A program made the translations under genes and the position numbers. From Pedobacter sp. (GTDB lineage: Bacteria; Desulfobacterota; Desulfuromonadia; Desulfuromonadales; Syntrophotaleaceae), in contig JBFWJC010000004.1 of NCBI GenBank assembly GCA_050253415.1, positions 128,001 through 192,000 of the forward strand: DNA of 64,000 nt. Reading direction: 5' to 3'. The notes beneath the pieces are model-generated. The model was not told the origin of the DNA and ran no database searches. It saw nothing but the letters and a program-made list of their open reading frames with translations. Positions within the stretch are counted from its first letter, which is position 1, and the number at the start of each line of letters is the position of its first letter. This document shows positions 10,477 through 61,729 of this stretch, piece by piece.

Positions 10477-10510
10477 CAATGCCTGGAAAACCGGACAGGA
10501 ATCGAGAATA

Positions 10511-45740: not shown

Positions 45741-45782
45741 GAGAGAAGCCGTCGCTACTCCCTGTCGAGGTTTGAGCGTATC

Positions 45783-48700
45783 ATGAAATTTACCGATCTT
45801 TTCATTCGCCGACCGGTTCTGGCCCTGGTGGTCAGTCTGGTCATCACCATCGCCGGACTGCAAGCTATCCGCAGCCTCAATGTACGCCAGTATCCACGCA
45901 GTGAAAATGCCGCGGTTACCGTCACCACCGCCTATGTAGGGGCGAGCGCCGATCTGGTGCGCGGTTTTATAACCACCCCCCTGGAGCGGGCTATTGCCGC
46001 AGCCGATGGTATCGACTATATCGAATCCCAGAGCGCAAAAGGCATATCGACCATCAAGATACGCCTGAAACTCAACTACGACTCAACCAAGGCTTTATCC
46101 GAGATCAGCTCCAAGGTCGACCAGGTGCGCAACGACTTGCCACCCGAAGCCGAAGTGCCGATCATCAATATCGAATCTGCCGACAGCGAATTCGCTTCAG
46201 CCTACCTGAGCTTTTCCTCCGATGTGCTGCTGCAAAACCAGATCACCGATTATCTGATGCGGGTGGTGCAGCCACGCCTGTCAGCGGTCGAAGGGGTACA
46301 ACGCGCCGACATCCTCGGTGCCCGTACTTTTGCCATGCGCATCTGGCTTAAGCCCGAGCGTATGGCTGCGTTCAATGTCACCCCCATCCAGGTGCGTCAG
46401 GCTTTGGCAGCCAACAACTACCTTTCCGCGGTGGGGCAGACCAAAGGTGCGCTGCTCCAGGTCAATCTGACCGCCAATACCAACCTGCAGACCGTCGACG
46501 AATTCCGCAAACTGGTTATCCGCCAACAGGGCGGCGCCATGGTACGGCTTGCCGATATCGCCGATGTCGTACTGGGAGCCGAAGATTACGACACCGAGGT
46601 ACGATTTTCCGGTCAGACAGCGGTATTCATGGGGATCTGGACTCTGCCCAACGCCAACTCGCTGGATGTCATCCGCCGCATCCGTACGGAAATGGAAAGC
46701 ATCCGCAAAGATCTGCCGGAGGGCCTTGAAGGCCAGGTTGCCTACGATGCCACGGACTATATCAATAACGCCATTCACGAAGTCATAAAAACCCTCGGTG
46801 ATACTCTGATCATCGTGGTGATCGTCATTTTCCTGTTCCTTGGCTCTCTGCGCTCGGTACTGGTGCCGGTCGTGGCCATCCCGCTGTCGCTCATCGGCGC
46901 AGTGTTCCTGATGCAGACTTTCGGTTTTACCGTCAACCTGCTTACCCTGCTAGCCATCGTGTTGTCGGTGGGACTTGTCGTGGATGACGCCATCGTGGTG
47001 GTGGAAAACGTCGAACGCCATCTGCGGGAAGGGCAGACACCTCTGCAGGCGGCAATCCTCGGGGCGAGGGAGCTGGTCGGGCCGATCATCGCCATGACCG
47101 TTACCCTTGCGGCTGTTTACGCCCCCATAGGCCTGCAGGGGGGGCTCACCGGCGCCTTGTTTCGCGAGTTCGCCTTCACCCTGGCCGGTGCCGTCACCAT
47201 CTCCGGTATTGTGGCTCTGACCCTGTCGCCCATGATGTCCGCCCAGTTGCTACGCGCCGACATTGAAGAGCATGGTCTGGCTGCGCGCATCGCCCGTACC
47301 TTCGACCGCTTACGCAACCTTTATGCCCGACTGCTGGACGCTACCTTGCGCATGCGGCCGGCGATCTATACCGCATGGATCGTGATCGGATTGCTGAGCA
47401 TTCCGATGTTCATGATGTCACCGGTGGAACTGGCACCGTCCGAGGACCAGGGGGTTATCTTCGGCATCCTCGATGCGTCGGCCAACGCCACCCTCGACCA
47501 GACCAGTCGGGATGCGGCTGTCGCCAATGAGATCTTTTTCAGCGCTCCCGAGACTCAATTCACCTTCCAGATTACCAACCCGTCAGCCGGGTTTGGCGGA
47601 CTGGTCACCAAACCATGGGGAGAACGCGAACGCACCGTATTTGAGATTCTTCCCGAGATTCACCAGAAACTGCAGGATATCCCCGGCATCCGCATGTTCC
47701 CGGTCACACCTCCGGCCTTGCCCGGCGGTGGCCAGTTCCCGGTGGAATTCGTCATCGCCTCCACTGCCGAGACCGAGCGCATCCTGGAGTTCACCCAACA
47801 ACTGCAGCTCAAAGCCATCCAGAGCGGCATGTTCGCCTTTCCGCCGCTCATCGATGTGAAGATCGATAAGCCTGAAACGGAATTTGTGATCGATCGCGAC
47901 AAGGTCGCCATGCTCGGCCTGGACCTTTCCCAGGTTGGTGCCGACCTCGGCGCCATGGTCAGTGGCAACTTTGTCAATCGCTTCGACATCTCCGGCCGCA
48001 GCTATAAGGTTATCCCGCAGATCCAACGCACCGGTCGCCTTAATCCCGAGCAGCTGCAAAACATTTACGTCACCGGCCCCGACAGCCAACTGGTCCCGCT
48101 CAGTACCATCGCCAGCCTGCGTGACAGTACCGTACCGCGCTCCTTAAACCGATTTCAGCAGCTCAATGCAGTCAAGCTAAGTGGCGTTTCCGTACGCCCC
48201 CTGGATGAAGCATTGACCTTCCTTGAAACCGAGGCGGCGAAGATTCTACCCGACGGCTACACCATCGATTACACGGGTGAATCACGCCAGCTGCGCTCCG
48301 AGGGTAACCGCTTTTTGCCGGCCTTTGGACTGGCTGTCATCCTCATTTTCCTGGTGCTTGCCGCGCAGTTCAACAGCTTCCGCGACCCCTTTGTCATTCT
48401 GTTCGGCTCCGTCCCCCTGGCCATGTTCGGCGCAATGATCTTCACCTTTTTGAAGATGCCCGACCCCAACGTGCCCTTCTGGACCAATGGCTGGACCACC
48501 ACCCTCAACATCTATTCGCAGGTCGGGCTTGTCACACTTGTCGGACTGGTCGCTAAAAACGGCATTCTTATCGTCGAGTTTTCCAATCAGCTGCAACTTC
48601 AGGGACACACCAAGCTTGCAGCTGTGCGTCAGGCTTCCCTCACCCGCCTGCGTCCGATCCTGATGACTTCGGTCGCCACTATCGCCGGTCATTTTCCTCT

Positions 48701-48875
48701 GACCCTGGTTACTGGCGCCGGTGCGGCGGCCCGTAATTCCATTGGTCTGGTACTGGTTGGCGGCATGTTCGTCGGCACCCTGTTTACCCTGTTCATCGTA
48801 CCATCCATCTACATGCTGGTGGCCCGCGATCACGCCAAGGATCTTAAACGCCGGGAGGCCGTCGCCGAAGTTTGA
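45783..48875 (+). CDS. RND efflux permease (AcrB/MexI/MexW-like)
   Basis: FIRRPV, GLVVDDAIVVVEN, KNGILIVEF and RLRPILMT motifs. Confidence 0.95.
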   Translation: MKFTDLFIRRPVLALVVSLVITIAGLQAIRSLNVRQYPRSENAAVTVTTAYVGASADLVRGFITTPLERAIAAADGIDYIESQSAKGISTIKIRLKLNYDSTKALSEISSKVDQVRNDLPPEAEVPIINIESADSEFASAYLSFSSDVLLQNQITDYLMRVVQPRLSAVEGVQRADILGARTFAMRIWLKPERMAAFNVTPIQVRQALAANNYLSAVGQTKGALLQVNLTANTNLQTVDEFRKLVIRQQGGAMVRLADIADVVLGAEDYDTEVRFSGQTAVFMGIWTLPNANSLDVIRRIRTEMESIRKDLPEGLEGQVAYDATDYINNAIHEVIKTLGDTLIIVVIVIFLFLGSLRSVLVPVVAIPLSLIGAVFLMQTFGFTVNLLTLLAIVLSVGLVVDDAIVVVENVERHLREGQTPLQAAILGARELVGPIIAMTVTLAAVYAPIGLQGGLTGALFREFAFTLAGAVTISGIVALTLSPMMSAQLLRADIEEHGLAARIARTFDRLRNLYARLLDATLRMRPAIYTAWIVIGLLSIPMFMMSPVELAPSEDQGVIFGILDASANATLDQTSRDAAVANEIFFSAPETQFTFQITNPSAGFGGLVTKPWGERERTVFEILPEIHQKLQDIPGIRMFPVTPPALPGGGQFPVEFVIASTAETERILEFTQQLQLKAIQSGMFAFPPLIDVKIDKPETEFVIDRDKVAMLGLDLSQVGADLGAMVSGNFVNRFDISGRSYKVIPQIQRTGRLNPEQLQNIYVTGPDSQLVPLSTIASLRDSTVPRSLNRFQQLNAVKLSGVSVRPLDEALTFLETEAAKILPDGYTIDYTGESRQLRSEGNRFLPAFGLAVILIFLVLAAQFNSFRDPFVILFGSVPLAMFGAMIFTFLKMPDPNVPFWTNGWTTTLNIYSQVGLVTLVGLVAKNGILIVEFSNQLQLQGHTKLAAVRQASLTRLRPILMTSVATIAGHFPLTLVTGAGAAARNSIGLVLVGGMFVGTLFTLFIVPSIYMLVARDHAKDLKRREAVAEV

Positions 48876-49382
48876 TCTTTTGTCCGGGGCCGCGCCTGCG
48901 GCCCCGGGACCCGACTCAAACATTCCCCCTTGCCCGCCTTTTTTCCGGCCCGGAAAATAATCAACACGCACACGTATCCGCCAGCTTTTTTCTCAACACT
49001 CGGTGCAGTGCTATCCAAATGCCGGCACTTTTCACCTACCCAAGTTATGTCGTTTCCGGTTATCGGCTGCGTTAATGATTGATGTCGCCTCGCTGCCCCC
49101 TATTATCATCAACAGGCTTATGATGGCATACACCATGAACGGTAGCATTGCAAAGCTCGGAGATAACATGGCTACCCCAAGAAAATGTCTGCGGGGATCA
49201 ACATCCTTATACGGCAAGAGAAGACGTATGAATTAATCGGAAAGAAAGGGATAAGGGAGGGTATAAACGATGGATTAAACACCGCTCGAAAAAACCGCTC
49301 GATTAAACAGAGCGGTTATCCCAAGTCGGCAGGCGACATGAAAATAGTAAAAAAACCCATTCAAAATCGCCATCAGTGCCTG

Positions 49383-49559
49383 CTACTCTTCAAGAGAAAT
49401 AGCGTCATGGGGACAAGCCGGAATACAAATCCCATCCAAATCGCATTTCTCATGATCGATGACGGCTTTGCCATCCTGCAGCGTAATGGCCCCCACGGGA
49501 CAAGCTTTGACACAATTGCCTGAACCGCTACAAAGAGTTTTGTCGATAGTAATTTTCAT
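49383..49559 (-). CDS. Small dicluster-type ferredoxin (58 aa) with non-canonical ligands; absent from the ORF track
   Basis: Manual translation: MKITIDKTLCSGSGNCVKACPVGAITLQDGKAVIDHEKCDLDGICIPACPHDAISLEE*. GGAG RBS 7 nt upstream of the ATG. Confidence 0.88.
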   Translation of the reverse strand: MKITIDKTLCSGSGNCVKACPVGAITLQDGKAVIDHEKCDLDGICIPACPHDAISLEE

Positions 49560-49856
49560 AGAAATACTCCGTAATGTTGCGTGACTTGCCAGCTATCCTA
49601 AAAGATGTAAATCAAACGGTCAATGGGGATTATAGGGAGGGCGCCCCCTGAGACATTCTACAGGCACATGCCGGGCTGTAAAAAACACCGCGAAACAGCG
49701 CTTTCAGGATAAAAGAATCAGGTCCGGACAGGCCTGGACAGGCAAACGATGCCTCGGCAAGGGAAAATTCATCGCCTCTCTTCGTAAATAATAATTGACA
49801 ATTTTCCAGCCATTGATAATCTGCTCTAAATTAAAACATTGTCTTTATTCAGAAAA

Positions 49857-50153
49857 ATGAAAGTAATATCTATGATACGCAGCGACACGGTTATTTCCCT
49901 GAGCCAGGATGCGACCTACCAGGATATGGGAGAAAATGAACCGGCGGTTATTTTGCAGCTTAGCACCGGAAGGCTCTTTACCTGCAACCTGACCACACGC
50001 TGCTTCCTTGATCTTTTGTCTGGTCCATGTTCCTTGGGCGACGCTGTCGATCAACTACTTAAAACGTTTGATGTGCCGCGTGAAAAACTGGAACGGGATC
50101 TCATAAAACTGGCAGGACAGCTTCTGGCCGCCGGTCTGATACAGCTTAACTGA
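49857..50153 (+). CDS. PqqD-family RiPP recognition element (lasso B1-like)
   Basis: ~95 aa; pattern AVILQLSTGRLFTCN...FLDLL...LLKTFDVPREKLERDL..LAGQLLAAGLI matches the PqqD/RRE family. Overlaps the next gene by one base (TGATG). Confidence 0.85.
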   Translation: MKVISMIRSDTVISLSQDATYQDMGENEPAVILQLSTGRLFTCNLTTRCFLDLLSGPCSLGDAVDQLLKTFDVPREKLERDLIKLAGQLLAAGLIQLN

Positions 50154-50596
50154 TGCTTCCATGGATATTGCGGATACATATCCGCCTTGTTACCCTGGTT
50201 ATTCCTTTGCTGGACCGAATGCTCCCAACCCCGCGTCTGGTGCGCCTGCTGGCAAAACATGACCTGTGGCACCCTTATCGGGGCATTCCGGCCGACACGA
50301 TCACAAAATATGTCCATACCGCCCTGCGCAAGCCCCGTTGGATGAAGCGTCGGGCCTGCTATCGACTCGGGCTGACCATGAGCCACTTCCTGCACCTGGC
50401 CGGGAAACCAGTCGTACTGCACTTTGCCATTGCCCCACCCAGCTGCGATGCCATGCGACTGCACGGGCACTGCTGGGTCACCCTTGACGACCGAGCCATC
50501 ACCGCTCCGCCTGAACCTTCAACCGGCATGCGAACCTTTGTCCGGTTCAATATGGGCAGTGGCAGCCCATTTACCGCAAATCCAAAACAACCGTAG
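50153..50596 (+). CDS. Lasso peptide B2-type leader peptidase (transglutaminase-like Cys protease)
   Basis: ACYRLGL (catalytic Cys) and HGHCWV (cf. AHAW) motifs, 147 aa, directly after the RRE gene. Confidence 0.82.
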   Translation: MLPWILRIHIRLVTLVIPLLDRMLPTPRLVRLLAKHDLWHPYRGIPADTITKYVHTALRKPRWMKRRACYRLGLTMSHFLHLAGKPVVLHFAIAPPSCDAMRLHGHCWVTLDDRAITAPPEPSTGMRTFVRFNMGSGSPFTANPKQP

Positions 50597-50650
50597 CAGC
50601 CACAAATTTTGTGCGCATACCCTAGCCCCTTACATCACAGGAGTCAGCCC

Positions 50651-50764
50651 ATGGAGAGCACACCCCAGGAATACCAGGAACCGACCTTGGAAGAGCAGGA
50701 AACCCTGCAGGAAATTACCGAAGGCGTCGCGATGGTGGTTTCCGGAGCCCCGGACCCGACCTAG
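50651..50764 (+). CDS. RiPP precursor peptide with lasso-type leader (37 aa); absent from the ORF track
   Basis: MESTPQEYQEPTLEEQETLQEITEGVAMVVSGAPDPT*. AGGAG RBS, YxxPxL motif and Thr at -2 before Gly. Confidence 0.85.
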   Translation: MESTPQEYQEPTLEEQETLQEITEGVAMVVSGAPDPT

Positions 50765-50814
50765 AAGACGTGCTTTATGACGATCACGTACCCACCCGGA
50801 GCAAAAGTGCTCCC

Positions 50815-50940
50815 ATGAGCAGCTAACAGAACTATCAGGAACTGTTTATGGGAGAGCTGGTAATTACCGGCGGCACTGCTCCGGCAGCATCGAATCGGCC
50901 TGAAACCTTTTCATCTGTAAAATGCCGGTATCCACGGTAA
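50815..50940 (+). pseudogene. Degenerate second precursor copy
   Basis: MSS*QNYQELFMGELVITGGTAPAASNRPETFSSVKCRYPR*. Aligns at codon level with the precursor leader; in-frame TAA at 50824. Confidence 0.55.
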
Positions 50941-51035
50941 CGCTTTTCAGAACACCCTCTTGTTGAGGCCGATTCACACCGGAACTTCCCGCTCCCCAGA
51001 AGTAATGTCCATCCATCCCCGGCCCGGATGTAACA

Positions 51036-52085
51036 ATGCCATCCGGATCGGGTTTGGTTTTAACGGAACAGCCCCCTTTGCGCTACTACGACATTCACAA
51101 TCTGTCACTGCGAGTTGAATCCGAGGATCAGGGACTTTTTTCAGCCATGGAGTCTCTGACAGCCGGTTTTTTCAGCCTGCCTGCATCTCCCCCTACGGAT
51201 AACAGTTTCATCCTGCGGGGACAAAGCGTTGTCGGCAGGGAAGAATTGCCTCTTCCCGACGAGCGCAGCTATCCCCTTTCGTTTGCCGGGACACCGGATA
51301 TCGGCCTGCCGATCAGACTATTGGTAAAACCACCGCACGAGCGCGTCTGGTTGCAACGGGATACCACCGTAACCCGCTGTGATTTGGGAAGACGCCAGGC
51401 GGAAGCCGTCGTCGTCCAGGGCCACTGGCCTTCATGGGGCTTCCAGACTCTGATCCCGCTGTTGGCGGAAGCGCTTGGCCGGCAGGACATGTTTCTGCTG
51501 CACGCTGGGGCGAATCTGTGGCCCGACGGTCGTTCATGTGTGCTGTTTTTCGGTGCCAGCGGCACCGGTAAGACCACGACGGTTCTGTCCCTGGCCTGCC
51601 AGGGCTGGTCACTACTCTGCGATGACGCAGGTTTTCTTACCACCCAGCAAGGCCAGCCCAGTCTGTGGGGACTGCCGCGAGCGAGCAAGGTTCACCATCA
51701 AACATTTCAACTGCTGCCATCCCTGTCTAAAATACCCCGCAAGGCCATTGCCGGCAGCGAGGAATGTCTGGTCAGCTTTCGTGATCTACCACATGTGTCC
51801 CCCCGAGAACGCATCCCGGTTCGCGCTATTTTTCTTCTGCAACCGCGCAACACAATACAGCACTTCTGCAGTCCTCTCACCGCAACGACCGTGTTGCCAC
51901 GCCTGATTCAAGGAAATATGAGGGTTATCGACCCCAACGCAACAGATAATGCCGGGAGGATGTTTAAAACTCTGAGCATCTTGTGCAAAACAACCCCTTG
52001 TTACAGTCTTTCCGTTGGGCCGGACCTAACGACCCTGCCAGCAGTCATACAAGCCTTGCCTGCGTCGAAGTTCTCCGCATGTTGA
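51036..52085 (+). CDS. HPr-kinase-like P-loop kinase (RiPP-cluster type)
   Basis: FLLHAGA, Walker A GASGTGKTT and LLCDD motifs. Confidence 0.82.
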   Translation: MPSGSGLVLTEQPPLRYYDIHNLSLRVESEDQGLFSAMESLTAGFFSLPASPPTDNSFILRGQSVVGREELPLPDERSYPLSFAGTPDIGLPIRLLVKPPHERVWLQRDTTVTRCDLGRRQAEAVVVQGHWPSWGFQTLIPLLAEALGRQDMFLLHAGANLWPDGRSCVLFFGASGTGKTTTVLSLACQGWSLLCDDAGFLTTQQGQPSLWGLPRASKVHHQTFQLLPSLSKIPRKAIAGSEECLVSFRDLPHVSPRERIPVRAIFLLQPRNTIQHFCSPLTATTVLPRLIQGNMRVIDPNATDNAGRMFKTLSILCKTTPCYSLSVGPDLTTLPAVIQALPASKFSAC

Positions 52086-53140
52086 GCCCGATGGACAGCT
52101 TATTCCTGGCCTTGTGCGACCCTGAAAGCATCGGCCCATCGTCAAACTGCAGGTTTTCAACGCAAGACCTGATACCGGCAGAATTGTGCCGAAAGGCCAC
52201 CTTTCACGGGGTTCACGGCCTGCTGCTGGCTAACCTGCAAAATCCAGCTTGGCAAGATAGCGCATCCAGAGAATGGTACGAGGCCATGCAGAAAGAGCTG
52301 ACGCCCATTGTCCGTGCTGACAGGGCGCGCGGTTTGGCACTGCGAGCCCAGGGAGAACGCATTTTACAGGTTTTGCGCGCCAGCAATATCCCGGTGCAAT
52401 TGATCAAAGGCGCGGATTTTGCGGACCATCTCTATCCTCGACCTGAATTGCGCAGTTTTACGGACATCGATCTGTTGGTTCGCCCGGAAGATTTCCAATC
52501 CGCACAAGACCTGTTACTTGAATGGGGTTGCCAACAACACCACACCGGCACGCTGAAACATGCGGCAACTTACGGTGAAACGGCCTTTACCAGCAAGGTT
52601 GCCGGCATGCAGCTGCGCGTGGAACTGCACTGGAACCTGGTAAACTCGCCTGCGTTACAAAAAGCCATGAGCGTCACTTTGAACGACCTGCTGGATGAGC
52701 ACGGGACATTGCGCCATGAAGGTCGTCTTCTGCTCGCCGCCATACATGCCGGCACCGGACATCAGTTCGATCGTCTGAAATTCCTCCTCGATCTACGGCA
52801 GATTTTTCGTCGTCTCAGTAAACAGTCCAATCTGCCATGGCTTTCCGAACGAATTACCCGAACCGGCTGTCGGCAGGTGATGGCAACGGCCTGCTGGCTG
52901 GTAGAAAATCTTTTTCAATGCAACGATGCACGCCAGTCAAGACTCCATCTCGGGATAAAGCACCCAGCCCTTCTCTGGAGGTGGATTCTGTCCCCGGGGT
53001 TGGTACTACGAGCCCACCAGCCGAACATAGCTGACGCCTTGCGTAAAAATCTCTACCGACAGCACCTTAAAAATGATCCAGTTGGCCCACCCCCCATGTC
53101 TGCGGACACTGAGCCCGCCAAACAACGAGGACCGTTGTGA
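52079..53140 (+). CDS. Nucleotidyltransferase family protein (lasso-cluster-associated type)
   Basis: LIKG...LYP..ELRSFTDIDLLV, VELHW and LLDL motifs. Overlaps both the kinase and radical SAM genes. Confidence 0.82.
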   Translation: MLSPMDSLFLALCDPESIGPSSNCRFSTQDLIPAELCRKATFHGVHGLLLANLQNPAWQDSASREWYEAMQKELTPIVRADRARGLALRAQGERILQVLRASNIPVQLIKGADFADHLYPRPELRSFTDIDLLVRPEDFQSAQDLLLEWGCQQHHTGTLKHAATYGETAFTSKVAGMQLRVELHWNLVNSPALQKAMSVTLNDLLDEHGTLRHEGRLLLAAIHAGTGHQFDRLKFLLDLRQIFRRLSKQSNLPWLSERITRTGCRQVMATACWLVENLFQCNDARQSRLHLGIKHPALLWRWILSPGLVLRAHQPNIADALRKNLYRQHLKNDPVGPPPMSADTEPAKQRGPL

Positions 53141-54597
53141 GAGTCTTACTGATTGCCCCGACGCCCCCTGCCTGCCATTGGCCGCAAGGCGTATTTTTCT
53201 ACCCGGTGGTCCCGACAGAACTGGCCCACTGTGCAGCGCTGCTGCGCCAACACGGACATCAAGTACATCTCGAACAACGCGAAATCAGCCTGCTGCAGGA
53301 AAAGTTCGACTGGACGAAAGCGGATGCCCAGTTTGAAGCTTTACTGCTAAAATTCTTACCGGAACTGGTGGTCTTTTTTACCCCGACCGCATCGGCTGAT
53401 GAAGCCTTTCGTTTGGCCGATATAACCCGATCGTTTCTGGGGTCCTCCGCAAACATCCTGCTGTGTGGCCCCCATGCAACAGCGCTGCCGGAACAAACCC
53501 TCGCAGACTGTCCGGTTCTGGACGCGGTCATGGTCGGCGAATGGGAATGGACCCTGCTGGAGGCCGCGGAAAGGGGGCTAACCCCTGGTATCGCAGGCCT
53601 TCGATGTCCGACAGCGCCTCAAAAAGGCTGCATACCGCGACCGGCCTGTACCGAACTGGATAGTTTGCCTATGCCGGCGTGGGATCTGTGCGACATGGCC
53701 TATATCACCAACCGGCATCGTTGGCTGATTCGATGGCTTCCTTTACGGACCATCAATCTGCGTACCTCCCGCGGTTGCCCCAATGCCTGCAACTTTTGCG
53801 CTGCTCCGCTGACGGCCGGGGCCGGTGTCCGTTTCCATTCCGTGGAATACGTAACGGAAATGCTTGCTTACGCATTGCAAATCTATCCGGTCGAAGCGGT
53901 ACTGTTTGAGGATGAAACGTTTGCCGCGGATGAGTCACGTTTGCGGCAGTTGTGCGAAACGATACAAACACGGGGATGGCATCGCCGCCTGCAATGGGCC
54001 TGCTGCCTGCGCACCGACCAGGCGCGCCCCGACCTGCTGCGCGCAATGAAGGCCGCCGGCTGCATCCAGGTTGAATACGGATTTGAAACGGCAAGCAACA
54101 CGCTGCTGCAGGCCATAGGCAAAAATACCACCGTCGAGCAAAACCTTGCCGCCGCCCACCACACCAGAGAAGCTGGCCTGCGTGTTTACGCCAATATCAT
54201 GTTCGGGCTTCCCGGAGAAACGGCCATGGACATGCGCAACACAGTCAATTTTATCCGCGCCATACGCCCCGAAGTCATCTCCGCCTCCGCGATGGCCCCG
54301 TTCCCCGGCACAGCATTGTTTCGCGGCTTGAGCGCGGCGCAAAAAAAACGTCTGCAATGGGGAACGTTCACCTATCCGGATCAGTTTCGTTCCGGCTTTA
54401 ACCCCACGGCCATGACCGATGCACAATGGCGGAAGAAATACCTTCAGGTGCAGAAACACTTCATCAAGCCTCTGATATTACGGCAACTGCTGCGCGATGC
54501 GGAAAAGGAATCATCGGCCAATATCCAGCATTGGCGCAAACGATGGCGCCGTTTCTGCCGCCGGCACCCACTGAAAGCCTGGCGCCTGCCGGTTTAA
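53137..54597 (+). CDS. Cobalamin-binding radical SAM enzyme (class B methyltransferase-like)
   Basis: N-terminal B12-binding-like domain (CGPHAT, VGEWE), TSRGCPNACNFC (CX3CX2C), YGFET and FGLPGET motifs. Confidence 0.9.
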   Translation: MRVLLIAPTPPACHWPQGVFFYPVVPTELAHCAALLRQHGHQVHLEQREISLLQEKFDWTKADAQFEALLLKFLPELVVFFTPTASADEAFRLADITRSFLGSSANILLCGPHATALPEQTLADCPVLDAVMVGEWEWTLLEAAERGLTPGIAGLRCPTAPQKGCIPRPACTELDSLPMPAWDLCDMAYITNRHRWLIRWLPLRTINLRTSRGCPNACNFCAAPLTAGAGVRFHSVEYVTEMLAYALQIYPVEAVLFEDETFAADESRLRQLCETIQTRGWHRRLQWACCLRTDQARPDLLRAMKAAGCIQVEYGFETASNTLLQAIGKNTTVEQNLAAAHHTREAGLRVYANIMFGLPGETAMDMRNTVNFIRAIRPEVISASAMAPFPGTALFRGLSAAQKKRLQWGTFTYPDQFRSGFNPTAMTDAQWRKKYLQVQKHFIKPLILRQLLRDAEKESSANIQHWRKRWRRFCRRHPLKAWRLPV

Positions 54598-54766
54598 ATC
54601 TGCCCCGGCGCTCCATTCACATTCAACGACCCTGCCGCAACCGTTGCAGATCTCAAACCGTTTCCAATTTCGGATTGCCAAACCGAAGGTTAGTGCGTAT
54701 GTTTTCAGGTTGAAGTACTTTGCGGATACATGGAAAGCGCCCGCTGCCAACCCAAGGAGATCCCAC

Positions 54767-55783
54767 GTGCGTATCCTTATCGTCACCCCTGAACAACCAC
54801 GCACGACAGGCAACTGGGTTTCAGCGCGGCGCCAACAGAAAGGACTACAAGCCCTTGGCCACGACGTTCATATCGTCGAAGCCGGAGAATCCGTCCAGCA
54901 ACTGGAAGGGGTCATTGAAAAGTACGCCCCCGATGTAGTGAATCTACTGCATGCTTTTCGCAGTGGCAAACAATGGCTGGCATGCAAACAAGCCGAACGC
55001 ATCCCCATGGCAGTCACGCTGACGGGCACCGACGTTAATCATGGACTTGCACATTCGGAACAGAGTCCGACAATTCTGACCGTCCTGAACCAGGCTCAAG
55101 CCGTCATTACCATTAATGCCCTGACCGCCATGGCGTTGCAGAGGCGTTACCCCGACCTGGCCTTGCGCCTGCACCACGTAGCACCTGCCATCGATCCCGG
55201 CCACGAGCCTTATAGCCTTCGCCAGAGACTGGAGATGCCACAGGACTGCGTACTATTCCTGCACCCTGCCAGTATCCGCCCCGTAAAAGCAAACCTGGAA
55301 CTGCTTGAAATGTTCCTGCCGGTTGCCTCCGCCGAACAGTCCTGCCGGCTGGTTTTTTGCGGACCGATGCTTGATGCTGTTTATGGAGATCGCTTTTTTA
55401 ACGCCATGAAACTATGCCCATGGGCCCATTACGCAGGAGAAATCCCGGCAGGTGCCATGCCTGCCGCCATGCTGGATGCAGACATCATCATCAACAACTC
55501 GATCAGTGAGGGCTTTTCCAACACCCTGTATGAAGCGGCCTGTCTTGGGACCCCGATATTGGCCAACGATATTCCCGGCAACATGGTTGCTTTTGAATCA
55601 GGCCGGCAGGGCCTTTTATACGACACGCCGCAAAGGTTCGTTGAGCAAGCGCTGACTATGGTACGCAATCCGGAGTTGCGCCGACAGCTCTCACAACCAC
55701 AGCATGCGCCGCGTTCACCGCAGGAAGAAGCCCGGCAACTCGAAAAAATCTTTTTAGCACTCGTAGCACAACCCCGATTGTAA
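54767..55783 (+). CDS. GT4 (GT-B) glycosyltransferase
   Basis: GTG start with AAGGAG RBS; TGNWVSARR, LHAFRSG, TGTDVN, IRPVK and SISEGFSNTLYEA motifs. Confidence 0.85.
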   Translation: MRILIVTPEQPRTTGNWVSARRQQKGLQALGHDVHIVEAGESVQQLEGVIEKYAPDVVNLLHAFRSGKQWLACKQAERIPMAVTLTGTDVNHGLAHSEQSPTILTVLNQAQAVITINALTAMALQRRYPDLALRLHHVAPAIDPGHEPYSLRQRLEMPQDCVLFLHPASIRPVKANLELLEMFLPVASAEQSCRLVFCGPMLDAVYGDRFFNAMKLCPWAHYAGEIPAGAMPAAMLDADIIINNSISEGFSNTLYEAACLGTPILANDIPGNMVAFESGRQGLLYDTPQRFVEQALTMVRNPELRRQLSQPQHAPRSPQEEARQLEKIFLALVAQPRL

Positions 55784-55849
55784 TTCCCTTTCAAACTTGC
55801 CGGCTTCCGGCTGTAAAACACCATCGATTGCAGCACCGATATCGGCTTT

Positions 55850-57244
55850 TCAAATCTCGGCTTCGATCTTAGCCCCGATGCTGGATTGAACCCGACGCAA
55901 ACGAACGCCAAGAAAAACGGCCGAAATACTCAACCCGACTATGAGACTTATCCAGAATCCTCTTGCCCCCATCGGGACGCCCCAAACAGAGGTCAGCGAA
56001 AGGCTGTAACCCAACGGCATCGCAACCCCCCAGAAAGCAACCATTATCAAGACCAGGGGCATACGGGTATCTTTGTAGCCGCGCAGAGCCGCAACAGCAC
56101 CAACCTGGTAAGCATCGGAGACCTGATAAAGAGCATTCAGATAAAGCAGCCCTACGGCAATGGCAACAACCTGGCTGTCCCGCGTATACAAGCTGGCAAT
56201 CTGTTCGGCGAACAGCATGGTAAAACCAGCCGTCATGACTGCAACCAAAGAATTAATCAGTAATCCCGTTCGGCATATCCGTTTTGCAAGAGCGAACCGT
56301 TTGGCCCCGACCGCATGCCCCACCCGGATGGTGATAGCGCTGGCGATACTCAGGGGGACCATAAAAACCGTAGCTGAATAGTTAAGGGTAATCTGGTGAG
56401 AAGCAACGACCAACGCTCCCAACGGTGCCAAAAACAGGGCAATCAAGGCAAAGACACTCGATTCGACCAGCAAGGAGAAACCGATGGGCAATCCGAGCCG
56501 AAGAATCTGCATGCCACCTTCCTGCCCACAAGGTCGGGTAAAATCAAAACAATATGTGGCGGCATAGGCCCTGCCCCGTAAAATTGTCATCACCATACAG
56601 CCACACATAAACCATAGCGTAAGCGCGGAAGCCCATCCGCAGCCGACACCTCCGAGTGCGGGAAATCCGAGTTTGCCATAAATCAATACATAATTGACGG
56701 CGACGTTAACCGGTAGACTGGCCACCCCAATAAGCATGCTAGGGCGCACCAGACCTAATCCTTCGCTTAGATTCCGCAAAAGAAAAAACACAGCGGCTGG
56801 AGGCAGTCCCCATGCAATGGCCTTGAGATATCGAGAAGCAATTAAAGAGACCTTGGGAACAACTCCCATCATTGAAAACACCATATCGGCATGACGCAAG
56901 AGCAACATCGCCACCACAACCATCGGCAAGGCTACCCCTATGCCGCGTCGTACCAGCGGACCAGTTTGGTCGGTATGCCCAGAACCATGTAATTGCGCAA
57001 CCATTGGCGTAATAGCCAACAAAATCCCGTAAAGAAACAGGGAGACAGGAATCCACAGACTGCCGCCGATGGCCACCCCTGCAAGGTCCGTAGCACTGAC
57101 CCTGCCGGCCATGATCGTATCGGTAAAAGCCAGAGCCTGTTGCGCCAGATGAGCGACCAGGATAGGGCCGGCAAGTATCATCAGGGCTCGGCCTTCAATC
57201 TTAAAACCAGGCATGTGCGCCCACTTCATAGGAAACACAGTCAT
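55850..57244 (-). CDS. MATE family efflux transporter (NorM-like)
   Basis: Polytopic membrane protein with DTIMAG, LGGVGCGWAS, RVGHAVGA and LRGYKDT motifs. Confidence 0.92.
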   Translation of the reverse strand: MTVFPMKWAHMPGFKIEGRALMILAGPILVAHLAQQALAFTDTIMAGRVSATDLAGVAIGGSLWIPVSLFLYGILLAITPMVAQLHGSGHTDQTGPLVRRGIGVALPMVVVAMLLLRHADMVFSMMGVVPKVSLIASRYLKAIAWGLPPAAVFFLLRNLSEGLGLVRPSMLIGVASLPVNVAVNYVLIYGKLGFPALGGVGCGWASALTLWFMCGCMVMTILRGRAYAATYCFDFTRPCGQEGGMQILRLGLPIGFSLLVESSVFALIALFLAPLGALVVASHQITLNYSATVFMVPLSIASAITIRVGHAVGAKRFALAKRICRTGLLINSLVAVMTAGFTMLFAEQIASLYTRDSQVVAIAVGLLYLNALYQVSDAYQVGAVAALRGYKDTRMPLVLIMVAFWGVAMPLGYSLSLTSVWGVPMGARGFWISLIVGLSISAVFLGVRLRRVQSSIGAKIEAEI

Positions 57245-57418
57245 ACACCCTCAAAATGAAAAGCTCTCGGAATGCGGGAGGCGGTATCACAAGATACAAC
57301 GGTTTGTCGTTTGACTTTCAAACATGTAACCTTTACAAACTAGTATTTATGAAGGCAATGTCCTTACTTCGATTTTGCCCATCATCCAACGACACTACCA
57401 TGCAGCGAAAGACAAATT

Positions 57419-58162
57419 ATGGCGAAAAGTCCAATGAATTTTCGTAAAAAAGCACTTCACCTGCTCTACCGCATCCAAGGCAAGAGAGTCTTGCACTTCC
57501 TCCATTTAGGTAAAACAGGTGGGACCGCTGTAAAACACGCCCTAATGCAGGCTCCTTCGGGAAGAAGGCATGTCCTCTACCTACATTCTCACAATGTCAA
57601 ATTGGAAGATATTGCAAAAGGGGAAGGTGTCTTCTTCTGCGTACGTAATCCAACGGCACGCTTTATCAGCGGATTTTACAGCCGTCAGCGTCAAGGTCAA
57701 CCCCGCCATTTCAGCCCATGGAGCCCCGAAGAAAAAAGTGCGTTTGAATTTTTCAGCACCCCAAACCAGTTAGGAAAAGCTCTTTCCTCGCAGGATCTTG
57801 AGCTAAGGCAACGGGCGATCAATGCCATGAAAAACATTCAACACATCAACTCCTCATACTGGGACTGGTTCAAGGATGAAGAATACCTGAGATCACGCCA
57901 GTCAGATATCTTTTTCATAGGCTTTCAGGAACAGTTGACTGAAAACTTCGAAATTTTGAAAATACGCCTCGAAATTCCCGCAAACATCGAACTGCCAAAA
58001 GATGACTTCCATGCTCATCGAAATCCCATACACCTGGATACATCCCTTGAAGCACAGGCCGTTAAAAACATCAGGGACTGGTACCAGGATGATTACCGAT
58101 TCATCAAACTATGTCGTGAAATCGTTGACCAACAGAAAGTGGAGGAAAAGACCATCCGATGA
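57419..58162 (+). CDS. Sulfotransferase family protein
   Basis: FLHLGKTGGT (5'-PSB-like) and VRNPTARFIS (3'-PB-like) motifs; C-terminal Y..DY. Confidence 0.75.
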   Translation: MAKSPMNFRKKALHLLYRIQGKRVLHFLHLGKTGGTAVKHALMQAPSGRRHVLYLHSHNVKLEDIAKGEGVFFCVRNPTARFISGFYSRQRQGQPRHFSPWSPEEKSAFEFFSTPNQLGKALSSQDLELRQRAINAMKNIQHINSSYWDWFKDEEYLRSRQSDIFFIGFQEQLTENFEILKIRLEIPANIELPKDDFHAHRNPIHLDTSLEAQAVKNIRDWYQDDYRFIKLCREIVDQQKVEEKTIR

Positions 58163-58259
58163 TTTAATGACGTCTATACAGGCGTTGATAAATATTTTAT
58201 TGCAAAGATTTGAAGGGGAGGATGGATTAAAAGGAAAAAGAAGATAGGTATGGAAATTT

Positions 58260-58544
58260 TTAACAACAAAGTGAGTTTACTATTTTTCTATAACAGGGAA
58301 AGTTCTTACTTAGTTTTCCGGTTATCTCATTTTTATACAAACTAAAAACTTTAATTGCAAGGTCAGGGCATATACTTGCACAGTATGCACACCCAGCACA
58401 ATTACCTTCATCAGAAAATACAGCAGTATAAACATGCTGATCATTCCCTACATTTTTTAAGAATAAGAGATTCCTCGGGCATGAAACCGTACACAAACCA
58501 CAGCCCTTGCATTTAGAAATATCTATTTCGATATGAGCAAACAT
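58260..58544 (-). CDS. 2x[4Fe-4S] ferredoxin (2-oxoacid oxidoreductase delta-subunit-like)
   Basis: CKGCGLCTVSCP and CAGCAYCASICPD motifs; AT-rich DNA. Confidence 0.8.
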   Translation of the reverse strand: MFAHIEIDISKCKGCGLCTVSCPRNLLFLKNVGNDQHVYTAVFSDEGNCAGCAYCASICPDLAIKVFSLYKNEITGKLSKNFPCYRKIVNSLCC

Positions 58545-58740
58545 TTTTCACCCTAAGTAAATATTTCTTAACTGTACCTACGACAAAGTTATCAAGCAAT
58601 TGAAATCGAGTCAACATTTTACATATTAATAAAACGCCTCCCCCTTTTAAAAACAAACATGCAATTATCACGAATACCATACATGGATAAGATTACCATT
58701 AAACATAAACACAACCTTTATTGCCCCCCCCTGAAAATAA

Positions 58741-59967
58741 TCATACCCCATACCCCTGCAGATCTTGTGTCCACATGCACAGTTGATTGCGGCCACAGTT
58801 TTTGGCTTTGTAAAGTGCTTGATCCGCCAGTTCAATCAAGTTCTCGATCGAAGTTTGCTGCCCGGATTGCAAGGTCACAAATCCAACACTGAGGGTTAGA
58901 AAGCCCTCGTCCCGTCCCACAGGGATATCGGCAGATTCGATGCACTCCATAATTCTACGCCCGACTTGCTCGGCAATTTGACTGGATGCGTTCGGCAGCA
59001 ACAATGAAAACTCCTCGCCTCCATATCGACAAGCTGTATCTCCATTGCGCAAAGCATCGCCGATGATTTCACCAACCAGTGCCAAAATCTGGTCACCCAC
59101 CACATGCCCGAGTCGATCGTTTACTTCCTTAAAATTATCGATATCAACCAACATCAGGCTCAACTCCTGTCCCGTCTTGGATGAGTTCTCCAATTCCTGC
59201 GCTAACATAGAAAAAAAGTGGCGTCTATTCGGCAGACCGGTAAGAGGGTCCAAAAGAGACAATCGCTGTGCCTTTTCACGTTGCTGTTCCACCTCGGAAA
59301 GGGCCAGATATAGGCGGTCCGACTGATCTTGGACAGTAATTTTATGGATAAATTCCTTTCGCTGGGACAACTCCATGGAATAACAGGCAAACATTCCACC
59401 AATATTAAAGAAGAAAAAGATAAAAATATTATTAAAAAAAATGGGCCCCGGGGTATCAGTAAAAAAAATAGCAACCATAAAATACAGACCAAAGATGCCC
59501 CAAGAGAGGATATTGGACACCACCTGCTTTGGTTCAAATACATAATAAAACAGACAGCACAGGATTAACCCACCATAATACAGATGATTTCCAGGAGAAG
59601 ATGATTGCGCCATCAACAAAAGCAAGCCACCACCCGCAGCGAAACCATTCAGTAAGGATATAGCTGTCCAGTATTTCCTGTAAAGAGAGGTACCGATAAG
59701 GCAATAGGTAGCAATCAGCATAGGACATACAACAAAGAACCTGACAATGAAGCACAGAAGCAACTGTTCTCTCAGGAGGAAGTAATCAAGAACAAAAAAA
59801 ATTGCATATAAAAATGTCCCACCTAAATAAATCAACCTTGGAACAAAAAGGTTACTGAATACGACATCCTGCAAAAACTGATTTTCAAGTTTTCTATCTA
59901 AAAACTTCAGGGTTGTCCCAATGGAAACAGCATCTATAATCATTGAAAAATCTCCACAAGCTACCAC
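58741..59967 (-). CDS. Membrane-bound diguanylate cyclase
   Basis: Multiple TM helices, DPLTGLPNRR, DIDNFKEVND, RxxD I-site (RNGD) and GGEEF. Confidence 0.92.
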   Translation of the reverse strand: MVACGDFSMIIDAVSIGTTLKFLDRKLENQFLQDVVFSNLFVPRLIYLGGTFLYAIFFVLDYFLLREQLLLCFIVRFFVVCPMLIATYCLIGTSLYRKYWTAISLLNGFAAGGGLLLLMAQSSSPGNHLYYGGLILCCLFYYVFEPKQVVSNILSWGIFGLYFMVAIFFTDTPGPIFFNNIFIFFFFNIGGMFACYSMELSQRKEFIHKITVQDQSDRLYLALSEVEQQREKAQRLSLLDPLTGLPNRRHFFSMLAQELENSSKTGQELSLMLVDIDNFKEVNDRLGHVVGDQILALVGEIIGDALRNGDTACRYGGEEFSLLLPNASSQIAEQVGRRIMECIESADIPVGRDEGFLTLSVGFVTLQSGQQTSIENLIELADQALYKAKNCGRNQLCMWTQDLQGYGV

Positions 59968-60194
59968 ATATAGTGAAGCCCTTACTTTTGACGTCCATTA
60001 TTTTTTATCACAAAACCCTGTTTGTACTGCACAAACGACTGTAAAAATGGGGACCCTAGGAAAATTGGATCGGGTATATTGAAGTAAATGATCCACGTAA
60101 TCAGTGCCTGATAATGCCAGATGGCTCAAATAGATTTAGCACCGCGTCCTTTATACAGGCAGTGATAAAATACAATATTTGCAAGGCGCCACCT

Positions 60195-60210
60195 TGGCAG
60201 AAAAATTGCA
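60195..60210 (+). promoter_or_regulatory. Candidate sigma54 (-24/-12) promoter
   Basis: TGGCAGAAAAATTGCA, with correct GG-N10-GC spacing. Confidence 0.5.
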
Positions 60211-60295
60211 AAAAACCTTAACCTTAGGGGGGGGGAGGAACCGTTTAATGTGCTACAACCCCAACTTCGATATCCAACGGACACAACACCATGCA

Positions 60296-60311
60296 AGCAA
60301 AGTGCTTGCCA
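60296..60311 (-). promoter_or_regulatory. Candidate sigma54 promoter facing the diguanylate cyclase
   Basis: Minus strand TGGCAAGCACTTTGCT, with correct GG-N10-GC spacing. Confidence 0.55.
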
Positions 60312-60714
60312 TATTGCCGCAGCATCTCATATTAAGTTAAGTTTTCAAGTCAGGAGATTTTCTATTTAAATAAAATAAGGTAAAATACAAACCTTGGTTC
60401 CGGAACGTGCTAAAGCCCCTGGTGATCATTACCGTCCATACACCAGACAAATGTCGAACCTTTCCTGCAGCAGAATATCAAAGGTGTGCTTTGAAAAACC
60501 GAAGAGGGAATCCACAACCATGAAAAGGGTGAACAACCGGAAGAAATTGCCATTTTTTTAATATTCACTCATCATAACAGGAAAGATGTTGTATCATGCT
60601 AGCGAGGCGGGATCTTCATGGATTTTTCAAAAATAACCCCGACTCCACAATAACGCATTCAACATCAAGCAAATCGCCAGTATCTTTCAGCAATAAAACA
60701 GAACGAGACTAATC

Positions 60715-61680: not shown

Positions 61681-61729
61681 ATCCGGTAATTGTGAGACCT
61701 CAGCTATTTATTTAAAAAAGGGGAAGACA

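Follow-up and report, generated by a model that had tools for sequence, protein, structure and literature searches.

What product is made by a locus that carries the leader-processing proteins of a lasso peptide pathway, three putative tailoring enzymes and no lasso cyclase? The question is raised by a gene block at positions 49839-54597 (+) of the window, the 64-kb stretch (64,000 nucleotides) of a Desulfuromonadales genome analyzed here. The block encodes a PqqD/RRE protein, a B2 peptidase, a 37-aa precursor, a kinase, a nucleotidyltransferase (NTase) and a B12-type radical SAM enzyme (rSAM), and all of the named genes are co-oriented on the + strand and closely packed. An earlier note, made from the sequence alone, had listed these genes and added a GT4 glycosyltransferase as a possible member; searches with Pfam and NCBIfam profiles bore out this inventory, GT4 membership apart. 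We consider it rather likely that the block is a self-contained, horizontally mobile RiPP unit with a short linear, non-lasso peptide as its product.

Lasso-type leader machinery

The first gene (49839..50153, +) encodes a discrete PqqD-type RRE resembling lasso B1 proteins (PF05402, 44.6 bits, cut-off 23.4, E-value 1.8e-11), the fold expected of this component in a lasso pathway. The match to the lasso PqqD models of NCBIfam is weak (30.5 bits, cut-off 70; 25.7 bits, cut-off 80). Orthologues in five related loci are 51-89% identical. Its true start is perhaps ATG 49857 or ATG 49872, and its stop overlaps the start of the next gene (50153..50596, +), which encodes a transglutaminase-fold Cys-His leader peptidase of the lasso B2 type (PF13471, 29.0 bits, cut-off 26; NCBIfam NF033537, lasso_biosyn_B2, 35.9 bits, cut-off 33). 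Residues C69, H106, C107 and W108 are unchanged in 8/8 aligned homologues, and the locus thereby has the B2 Cys protease of lasso pathways with its Cys69/His106 pair; the third residue of a Cys-His-Asp triad was not invariant among the same eight. This is the sole PF13471 gene of its genome, and each of the five related genomes G001, G008, G010, G060 and G183 likewise has a single PF13471 gene, the cassette copy.

The precursor gene (50651..50764, +), preceded by AGGAG 7 nt upstream, encodes 37 aa comprising the leader MESTPQEYQEPTLEEQETLQEITE and the predicted core GVAMVVSGAPDPT, and matched no Pfam family. It was aligned with 14 small ORFs that occupy the equivalent place in related loci, giving 15 precursors from 8 genomes or contigs. 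Y8, P11 and L13 are invariant in all 15 and L19 and T23 nearly so, while the aligned -2 position is Thr in 14 and Val in the remaining one; the YxxPxL leader with Thr at -2 of lasso precursors is therefore present. Co-folding of the RRE with the precursor scored 0.53 against 0.02 for the best of three controls, with at least 82% contact agreement between runs and a partner pLDDT of at least 54. The mark used is reached by 116/157 solved complexes and 2/215 mismatched pairs, and passes at or below 0.60 comprise just 18 of the 157 solved complexes plus both of the passing mismatches, so that the model lends the pairing weak support. RRE-leader complexes have already been solved, and a pass may reflect memory.

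The cassette is a mobile and conserved unit

A genome of the same genus (G006, locus L067) has an empty site. Its blastn matches cover window positions 43000-48923 and 49260-49634 and resume at 54652-59188, with about 88 bp between the block that ends at 49634 and the one that restarts at 54652. On this basis the whole cassette, to which no strand is assigned, was delimited as an indel of ~5.0 kb at 49635..54651, with edges good to a few tens of bases only. The indel holds no transporter; the RND/MFP pair upstream of it is also present in the empty-site genome, and the pumps that flank the cassette vary from locus to locus. As no exporter is kept with the cassette, a secreted product is not supported.

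The GT4 gene (54644-55783, +; PF00534, 55.8 bits) narrowly misses NF038229 (GPMC-system family 4 glycosyltransferase; 372 bits, cut-off 400), by far its best match. Homologues occur in 45/61 genomes of the order sample, many of them without the cassette, and none was found in two cassette-bearing genomes. Being beyond the indel and widespread in the order, the GT4 is not a cassette member, and its proposed inclusion was dropped.

Six other distinct loci, from five Desulfuromonadales genomes and one metagenome contig, have the five enzyme genes with their precursors in a syntenic arrangement. The series RRE-B2-precursor(s)-kinase-NTase-rSAM is complete in G001, G008, G060 and the Geobacteraceae MAG locus L038, and two of the six loci (G010 and L041) are cut by contig ends, with the B2 gene and one precursor of G010 lying on a second contig. 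Kinase identity to the window copy is 92% in G001, 56% in G008, 46% in G060, 49% in L038, 56% in G010 and 50% in L041, and rSAM orthologues are 56-90% identical. More distant variants, also without a cyclase, occur in two further genomes; the variant of G183 combines a B12 rSAM with DUF362. The distribution is sparse: an orthologue-level kinase was found in 4/60 relatives and in 1 further genome among 400 sampled from the phylum. All six ORFs gave dN/dS values of 0.21-0.46 against the same-genus copy in G001, ratios by which the cassette is under purifying selection. The same order in other genomes, together with these values, indicates that the grouping of the genes is more than chance.

A lasso cyclase is absent and the cores do not suit a lasso fold

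No Asn_synthase-type cyclase occurs in the 64-kb window, as the earlier note had observed, and a search of the whole genome agrees: in 4.10 Mb on 18 contigs (100% complete, 4535 bases masked) no PF00733 match exceeded the cut-off. One sub-threshold match on another contig (18.7 bits) belongs to an MnmA-type tRNA thiolase and was rejected as a cyclase. To the accompanying question of whether homologous clusters also lack the enzyme the answer is yes, none of the related cassette loci examined containing a lasso cyclase. In G010 (99% complete) PF00733 matches only two short stretches, with 25.9 and 21.3 bits and spanning model positions ~18-81 of 354, and the full-length Asn_synthase genes of G008, G060, G183 and G007 are on different contigs or at a distance of 700 kb. 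The Asn-synthetase-like macrolactam cyclase (C protein) of lasso pathways is thus missing.

The predicted cores, whose boundaries would follow if the lasso cleavage rule applies, measure 5-16 residues; under that rule, two would begin with Ile or Met. Each of the 15 has at least one Ser, which stands in a [VIT]SG motif in 12, and the Desulfuromonadales group conserves this motif together with the hydrophobic stretch before the Ser. In window-type cores the Ser falls at positions 5-7, and in the three G183 cores, of 5-7 residues, at position 3 (two precursors) or 2 (the third). Acidic residues are absent from 4/15 cores and occur at positions 7-9 in just four; the window core has D11 only. Cys is absent from all cores in this set and aromatics from the window-type ones. 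A D/E acceptor at 7-9 with a threadable tail is not a general feature of these cores, and because so few have the acceptor at all, the pathway does not lead to a lasso ring.

A true lasso pathway with a trans-acting cyclase, or the eroding relic of a lasso cluster that has lost this enzyme, could still account for the lasso-type RRE, B2 and leader, and might draw on the Asn_synthase-family genes located elsewhere in G008, G060, G183 and G007, or on a gene hidden in the 4535 masked bases. Against this, the genome of the window has no PF00733 match over the cut-off and G010 only its two short ones, the cassette has stayed intact at 44-92% identity in at least 6 loci under purifying selection, the 5-kb unit moves without a cyclase, and most cores lack the acceptor residue. 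We regard this explanation as largely refuted and very improbable. The suggestion that lasso leader machinery has been kept for a non-lasso product is instead upheld by an RRE, a B2 peptidase and a Y..P.L/Thr(-2) leader that occur without a cyclase.

Tailoring enzymes

The kinase gene (51036..52085, +) was assigned to the HPrK/PEPCK superfamily of peptide kinases (PadeK/PsmK/BsfK/LppK-like) by its invariant motif and its fold, its profile matches being weak (TIGR04352, 33.5 bits, cut-off 200; PEPCK P-loop; HPrK, E-value 0.011). Residues H156, G173, G176, G178, K179, T180, D196 and D197 are invariant in 5/5 orthologues and are spaced as in the catalytic motif described for BsfK (PMC10368454). 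The AF2 model (pLDDT 83) has ATP-PEPCK structures as its top PDB folds (E-value 1.6e-9), and the modeled fold is PEPCK/HPrK-like. From the alignment of the cores, the putative target is the conserved Ser.

The overlapping gene (51983..53140, +) encodes an NTase-fold enzyme of the PsmN/BsfN/LppN type (PF14907, NTP_transf_5; 129.6 bits, cut-off 31.2, E-value 1.9e-37). Orthologue starts point to ATG 52079, overlapping the kinase stop, as its likely start. K142, G143, D161, D163, H255 and H260 are invariant in 8/8 sequences, and the D-x-D is the counterpart of the pair whose mutation is described as inactivating PsmN (PMC6993621).

The last gene (53137..54597, +), whose GTG start overlaps the NTase stop, encodes a class B-like radical SAM enzyme with a B12-binding domain (PF04055, 71.2 bits, E-value 1.5e-19; PF02310, 32.1 bits, exactly the cut-off; 58.7 bits for PF02310 in the G183 homologue). 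The translation contains CPNACNFC (CxxxCxxC), and with its N-terminal B12-binding domain the protein has both marks of the class; it is of the B12 type without a SPASM domain. Catalytic residues are accordingly intact in the kinase, the NTase, B2 (Cys/His) and the rSAM (CxxxCxxC). The best NCBIfam matches are HpnJ (150.8 bits, cut-off 577.6), PhpK (116.1, cut-off 600) and ApyD (113.5, cut-off 750), the RiPP C-methyltransferase model TIGR03975 gives 58.3 bits (cut-off 281.85), and the best PDB match is AprD4 (6fd2, 3.9e-21). With all scores far under the cut-offs, the protein does not belong to the characterized equivalogs ApyD, PhpK or TIGR03975, and since its nearest named relatives (HpnJ, PhpK, ApyD, AprD4) are diverse, methylation is a guess. 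PoyC is reportedly a class B (B12-binding) radical SAM enzyme of RiPP tailoring. The cassette enzyme shares with ApyD and PoyC the N-terminal B12-binding-like domain, the CxxxCxxC core and the location within a RiPP cluster, whereas its own best matches, HpnJ and AprD4, act on sugars.

Radical SAM enzymes make crosslinks in many RiPPs, and a macrocycle might accordingly be closed by a cassette enzyme that is not homologous to the lasso cyclase, by a C-C/C-O crosslink of the rSAM or by carboxylate activation through the NTase, the 4/15 cores with D/E at 7-9 offering a possible site. This seems quite unlikely to us, for four of the 15 cores have no acidic residue, none has Cys, the window-type cores have no aromatics, the rSAM is of the B12 type without SPASM, and cores of five residues leave little space for a ring.

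Comparison with known systems

The earlier note had suggested an undescribed RiPP class. That claim is weakened by a cyclase-less RRE/HprK-kinase/NTase family published in May 2026, the linear polyphosphorylated peptides (LPPs; PMC13381572); LPPs are described from Bacillota only, with another peptidase and no rSAM. Among characterized systems in the published accounts, the LPP family is the nearest. Its clusters, lppA-K-B-S-D-N in Paenibacillus alginolyticus (Popov et al., Nat Commun 2026, PMC13381572), encode a precursor, the kinase LppK, the RRE LppB, the peptidase LppS, the exporter LppD and the NTase LppN, and yield linear Ser3-polyphosphorylated peptides without a cyclase; LppN was inactive in the published heterologous system. 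The defining LPP set of RRE, HprK-like kinase and PF14907 NTase without a cyclase (PMC13381572) is present in the cassette. Both systems have a lasso-like RRE, a YxxP leader, an HprK-like kinase and a PF14907-type NTP transferase, both lack a cyclase, and both show a patchy, horizontally transferred distribution; the LPP kinase acts on a core Ser to give a linear product, and we propose the same here.

The two differ, however, in several respects. The LPP peptidase LppS is SpI/SipW-like (S26), whereas the cassette has the lasso B2 Cys protease (PF13471) and no LppS-type enzyme, and the MsbA-like exporter LppD has no equivalent in the cassette. LPP cores have at least 45 aa, against 5-16 aa here, and of the reported motif YxxPxVLxHQxIxFETxxS the cassette leaders share YxxPxL, with a Thr also close to the point of cleavage, without the HQxIxFE part. 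The Ser position gives a mixed picture: the LPP phospho-acceptor is Ser3, and the core Ser here is at position 3 in two G183 precursors, 2 in the third and 5-7 in window-type cores. The cassette adds a B12 rSAM; the term 'Radical SAM' is absent from the LPP main text and in the supplements is confined to the heading of a column in a domain matrix (PMC13381572). Finally, LPPs are described as restricted to Bacillota (PMC13381572), whereas the cassette host belongs to Desulfuromonadales.

Phosphorylated or phosphoglycosylated lasso systems, as described for paeninodin, pseudomycoidin (PMC6993621) and Bradymonas BsfA (PMC10368454), share with the cassette the RRE (B1), B2, the HPrK-like kinase motif and the PsmN/BsfN-type NTase, as well as a YxxPxL leader with Thr/Ile at -2. 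Their kinases act on the linear precursor, helped by B1: PsmK phosphorylates a Ser on the linear precursor, with PsmN required for a +162 Da addition on the phosphate (PMC6993621), and BsfK, stimulated by BsfB1, phosphorylates the internal Ser3 (PMC10368454). As described, these clusters have a cyclase C, an ABC exporter, cores with a D/E acceptor and no B12 rSAM, whereas the cassette lies in a genome without a cyclase and most of its cores are unable to cyclize.

Proposed pathway and product

By analogy with these systems, the best reading of the locus is a pathway to a short linear peptide that would be phosphorylated on Ser and further decorated. The discrete RRE would bind the 37-aa precursor by its Y..P.L leader and present it to the HPrK-like kinase, which would phosphorylate the Ser of V-S-G (Ser7 of GVAMVVSGAPDPT). 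The PsmN-like PF14907 enzyme would then attach a hexose or a nucleotide to the Ser phosphate, and a radical step by the B12 rSAM may C-methylate the peptide or change the appended group. Last in this presumed order, B2, steered by the RRE and Thr(-2), would cleave after ...EITE, the site predicted by analogy with lasso leaders, and free a product of 11-16 residues. The product is probably a very short linear modified peptide, so far uncharacterized.

The peptide might alternatively be a scaffold, as in PQQ, mycofactocin and pearlin-type pathways, on whose Ser a small molecule is built, the product being that altered Ser or a peptide of two or three residues, with a possible intracellular role. 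Several features fit such a role: across the family no core residue other than the Ser is conserved, G183 cores are as short as 5-7 residues, three enzymes would act on a single residue, the cassette keeps no exporter, and the nearest named rSAM relatives HpnJ, PhpK and AprD4 act on small molecules or sugars. Yet a dedicated leader peptidase with a fixed Thr(-2) site suggests release of the entire core, [VIT]SG and the preceding hydrophobic stretch are conserved as well in the Desulfuromonadales group, and the cassette has no second protease to trim the core, so that we hold a scaffold to be unlikely.

A bolder reading is that all three enzymes act serially on the Ser: the kinase would make phosphoserine, the PF14907 enzyme would convert it to a sugar- or nucleotide-phosphodiester, and the B12 rSAM would rewrite the appendage or the Ser carbon skeleton, giving a residue type new to ribosomal peptides. 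We put this forward tentatively, as a possibility that we would not expect to hold. If true, such serial tailoring of Ser would define a new RiPP class whose products may have no more than five residues. LPP-like pathways would then extend beyond Bacillota for the first time, and the lasso B1/B2 pair would have its first known non-lasso use.

Gene content and boundaries of the cassette

Seven co-oriented ORFs, all on the + strand, occupy 49.8-55.8 kb of the window. A PqqD-type leader-binding protein (RRE, 49839-50153; PF05402, 44.6 bits) is followed by a lasso B2-type leader peptidase (50153-50596; PF13471, 29.0 bits against a cut-off of 26; NCBIfam lasso_biosyn_B2, 35.9 against 33), the start of which overlaps the RRE stop. 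Between the B2 and kinase genes lies a precursor ORF of 37 codons (50651-50764; MESTPQEYQEPTLEEQETLQEITEGVAMVVSGAPDPT), which begins 7 bases after an AGGAG sequence. The kinase-like protein (51036-52085) gave weak P-loop matches, to PEPCK and to TIGR04352 HprK-related kinase A (33.5 bits where the cut-off is 200), and is followed by a PF14907 nucleotidyltransferase (NTase, 51983-53140; 129.6 bits), by a radical SAM protein (rSAM) with an N-terminal B12-binding domain and a CPNACNFC motif (53137-54597; PF04055, 71.2 bits; PF02310, 32.1 bits, equal to its cut-off), and by a GT4 glycosyltransferase detected in the family scan (54644-55783). The family scans and the precursor ORF bear out the co-oriented RRE, B2, precursor, kinase, NTase and B12-rSAM genes described in the earlier note. 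Promoter and terminator scans gave no clear signal, with 7 promoter-like sites compared to 3.6±1.9 in shuffled sequences, and 6 terminator-like sites compared to 7.6±3.1. The spacer between precursor and kinase also holds a putative gene of 30 codons (MGELVITGG..., 50848-50940), shared with a genome of the same genus (G001), in which the same spacer carries a second precursor gene that is absent from the window.

Another genome of the genus (G006), devoid of these genes, aligns to the window up to position ~49634 and again from ~54652, with ~88 bp in between, and retains the upstream RND/MFP pump and the downstream GT4, MATE and sulfotransferase genes. From this empty site with its neighbors retained, the cassette was delimited to 49635-54651, leaving the GT4 gene outside. 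In more distant carriers the cassette is placed after a MacB-type pump (G008, same family) or after trmD-rnhB-yraN-nadE (G060, another family of the order), and sequence comparison indicates that it moves as a unit. Within the genus, the interval that separates the RND pump gene from the GT4 gene is variable (48876-54651 in the window, 7351-11243 of locus L066 in a third genome, G003, and 6856-7493 of locus L067 in G006). It contains the cassette in the window and G001, is occupied in G003 by genes for a trypsin-like peptidase and a GAF-GGDEF protein, and is nearly empty in G006.

Membership of the RND/MFP (44613-48875), MATE (55850-57244) and sulfotransferase (57419-58162) genes was ruled out, as all three stay in the empty-site genome and the flanks differ in G008 and G060. 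The GT4 gene, proposed earlier as a possible member, was also rejected, being outside the unit defined by the indel, retained in G006 and widespread in the order without the cassette: of the 61 genomes sampled from the order, 45 have a homolog (E≤1e-30), including three same-genus genomes that lack the kinase. The G008 homolog and the cassette are on different contigs, and no homolog was found in the cassette-bearing genomes G010 (same family) and G060. By family it comes closest to the NCBIfam model "GPMC system family 4 glycosyltransferase" (372 bits, cut-off 400), and no other GPMC components were found in the window. As this match only starts at residue 43, and the ortholog in G003 has 342 aa, translation probably begins downstream of 54644.

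The backbone further downstream (57419-62668) is polysaccharide-like, with Sulfotransfer_2, NAD-dependent sugar epimerase/dehydratase and GT2 genes. Clusters for linear polyphosphorylated peptides (LPP) and paeninodin are often located in capsule loci, according to Popov et al. 2026 (PMC13381572); here, the polysaccharide-like neighbors predate the cassette.

Absence of a lasso cyclase

A six-frame search of the organism's own genome (4.10 Mb in 18 contigs, 100% complete, 4535 bases masked) found no Asn_synthase (PF00733) match above the Pfam cut-off, whereas the same search was positive in 13 of 14 control genomes. The sole sub-threshold match (18.7 bits), on another contig, corresponds to an MnmA-type tRNA thiolase. 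The lack of a lasso cyclase noted earlier for the window is thus confirmed and extends to the whole genome outside the masked bases, with no dedicated cyclase found elsewhere; as the search found no gene of the Asn_synthase family, an AsnB-type asparagine synthetase is missing too. This genome has a single PF13471 gene, the B2 of the cassette, and a cassette B2 is likewise the only B2 in G001, G008, G010, G060 and G183 (the last from another family of the phylum). The full-length Asn_synthase genes of G007, G008, G060 and G183 are on other contigs or ~700 kb away. Two short PF00733 matches were the only ones seen in G010, in frames not assigned to a gene.

Precursor peptides and product type

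Fifteen small ORFs at the equivalent position (one in the window, two in G001, four in G008, two in G010, one in G060, one each in the Geobacteraceae MAG locus L038 and the metagenome contig L041, and three in G183) were aligned, encoding precursors of 33-39 aa. All of them share a Y..P.L motif with invariant Tyr, Pro and Leu, followed by nearly invariant Leu (six residues later) and Thr residues, with Thr at position -2 in 14 of 15. By these sequence features, the leader carries the signature of lasso peptide leaders, including the Thr at -2. Co-folding of the RRE with the precursor scored 0.53, compared to 0.02 for the best of 3 controls, with at least 82% agreement in contacts between runs and a partner pLDDT of at least 54. 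Of 157 solved complexes, 116 passed this mark, as did 2 of 215 mismatched pairs; among the passes at scores of 0.60 or lower were no more than 18 of the solved complexes, together with both of the mismatches. The result points weakly to recognition and, because solved RRE-leader complexes exist, may reflect structures already familiar to the folding model.

Under the lasso cleavage rule, the predicted cores have 5-16 residues; every one contains Ser, and 12 of 15 contain [VIT]SG. The predicted modification site is a single Ser within a core of 11-16 residues, or of 5-7 residues in the G183 variant. As Asp or Glu is found at core positions 7-9 in only 4 of the 15 cores, and another 4 of 15 have no acidic residue, a macrolactam lasso is not the conserved product. 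With RRE, B2 and leader conserved, no cyclase, and most cores unfit for lasso cyclization, the proposal that lasso leader machinery has been redeployed to make a short non-lasso peptide is right in its core.

Conservation and distant variants

Ortholog-level kinase matches were found in 4 of 60 relatives (92% identity in G001, 56% in G010 and G008, about 45% in G060). Among 185,579 species genomes, a pattern-seeded scan recovered these four genomes and the Geobacteraceae MAG (L038), all of Desulfuromonadales type (Pelobacter sp., Desulfuromonadaceae, Desulfuromonas sp. CSMB_57, Geobacteraceae and Desulfuromonadales), and scanning metagenomes yielded a single new contig (L041) plus a copy of the G008 locus. 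As each scan was seeded with two short peptide patterns, these 5 and 2 loci are lower bounds. The order RRE-B2-precursor(s)-kinase-NTase-rSAM is preserved in every sufficiently long locus; two loci are truncated at contig ends, and for G010 the B2 gene and a precursor gene absent from the truncated locus were located at the start of another contig. Compared to the same-genus copy, all six ORFs show dN/dS values of 0.21-0.46. Against 1.84 billion representatives, the kinase profile gave 6663 matches at E≤1e-3, 812 at 1e-10 and 95 at 1e-30, the look-alikes in the Atlas belonging chiefly to Acidobacteriota, Pseudomonadota and Chloroflexota.

The sole further kinase match among 400 sampled genomes of the phylum was in G183, where a variant (L044, G183:C17:43000-57434, positions 4289-11708) has RRE-B2-kinase-NTase on one strand and the precursors, a B12-rSAM (35% identical), a DUF362 gene beside it and a GT4 unrelated to that of the window facing them. 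Its three tandem precursors (8128-8554) have predicted cores GISPE, GDSNPPE and MSTET, and no Asn_synthase was found in the locus. A DDE transposase gene lies near this variant.

A second cyclase-less cluster type was found in G007, of the window's own family (L045, G007:C2:92500-112500, ~1000-11700, minus strand), with the order B2-RRE, a 29-aa ORF, an HPrK-like kinase, a second rSAM (490 aa), an ABC exporter, a WaaP/Kdo-type kinase, a B12-rSAM (735 aa) and a PF14907 gene. The 29-aa ORF (10740-10829) has a Y..P.F-like leader and a C-terminal YYYYYYH, and no cyclase was found within 20 kb. An encapsulin gene adjoins the cluster.

Predicted activity of the enzymes

In the kinase, H156, G173, G176, G178, K179, T180, D196 and D197 are invariant among orthologs, and their spacing reproduces the H-G-G-G-K-S...D-D motif of BsfK, the Bradymonas lasso kinase, reported as important by mutagenesis (PMC10368454). 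Both domains of an AlphaFold model (pLDDT 83, pTM 0.80) match ATP-dependent PEPCK (E 1.6e-9, TM ~0.5), placing the kinase, as modeled, in the PEPCK/HPrK superfamily. K142, G143, D161-x-D163, H255 and H260 of the NTase and Cys69 and His106 of B2 are invariant in 8 of 8 sequences, an invariant third acidic residue not being seen among the 8 aligned B2 homologs; sequence searches of the PDB with the NTase and B2 profiles gave no match at E≤0.1. From this conservation, the cassette enzymes look active. The best named relatives of the rSAM are HpnJ (150.8 bits), PhpK (116.1), ApyD (113.5) and AprD4 (PDB 6fd2, 3.9e-21), with scores against the best named families all far under cut-offs; its reaction cannot be read from homology. 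The conserved Ser is the inferred site of chemistry, and the part played by the rSAM is likewise inferred.

A stand-alone PF14907 NTase was also observed in genome G055 (L046, G055:C102, 5367-10870), inside a polysaccharide locus with an ABC-2/Wzt exporter and GT2 genes; a kinase-like match follows where the contig ends (10882-11445), and no RRE was found there with the window RRE as query. There are hints that the PF14907 family also works in glycan contexts.

Comparison with known systems and significance

The pseudomycoidin kinase PsmK (poly)phosphorylates a Ser, including that of the uncut precursor, and the PF14907-type PsmN is needed for the addition of one or two hexoses to that phosphate (PMC6993621), while BsfK phosphorylates an internal Ser3 with stimulation by the RRE (PMC10368454). 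The LPP clusters of Bacillota, as described by Popov et al. (PMC13381572), combine a precursor with a YxxP leader, an HprK kinase and a discrete RRE with a signal-peptidase-like protease, an MsbA-like pump and an NTP transferase. Lacking a cyclase, they produce linear peptides that are polyphosphorylated at Ser3 of the core. The cassette shares their RRE/kinase/NTase logic; in contrast to them, it has a lasso B2 in place of the signal-peptidase-like protease, includes a B12 rSAM in addition, has no dedicated pump, encodes far shorter cores and belongs to another phylum, the LPPs being called restricted to Bacillota in that article. The term "radical SAM" is absent from its main text, and its sole appearance in the supplements is as the heading of a column in a domain matrix. 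The suggestion of an undescribed RiPP class was therefore overstated, since LPPs follow the same cyclase-less logic, although the combination of B2 and B12 rSAM is distinct. The product would be an LPP-like short peptide, processed by B2 and tailored by the B12 rSAM.

Our literature search found no published account of this cassette as a cyclase-less lasso-like system, no cyclase-less cluster among the papers listed for PF13471/PF14907, and no mention of SynChlorMet, HprK-related kinase or HPr-rel-A among the papers listed for these terms, the ScmC matches being unrelated acronyms. In the genome paper of Desulfuromonas sp. CSMB_57, the antiSMASH result is given simply as "an RRE-containing region" (PMC9484754). 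The RRE-Finder paper (PMC7470986) counts roughly 8000 discrete RREs of lasso type, about half of them without peptidase and cyclase and ~300 alongside rSAM enzymes; its passages on these RREs do not describe this cassette.

Genome-mining rules will miss or misfile such cassettes if they demand a cyclase or take any B2 as lasso. With five enzymes in 5 kb, short precursors and a sharply defined predicted site, the cassette offers a practical test system, which could settle what PF14907 "nucleotidyltransferases" attach, left open by the pseudomycoidin, Bsf and LPP papers, and could reveal how a B12 rSAM acts in such a setting. The lasso B1/B2 module for recognition and cleavage appears portable, combinable with other chemistry in the absence of the cyclase, and the just-described linear phosphopeptide logic would reach from Bacillota to the anaerobic metal- and sulfur-reducing Desulfuromonadales, with another peptidase and a B12 rSAM.
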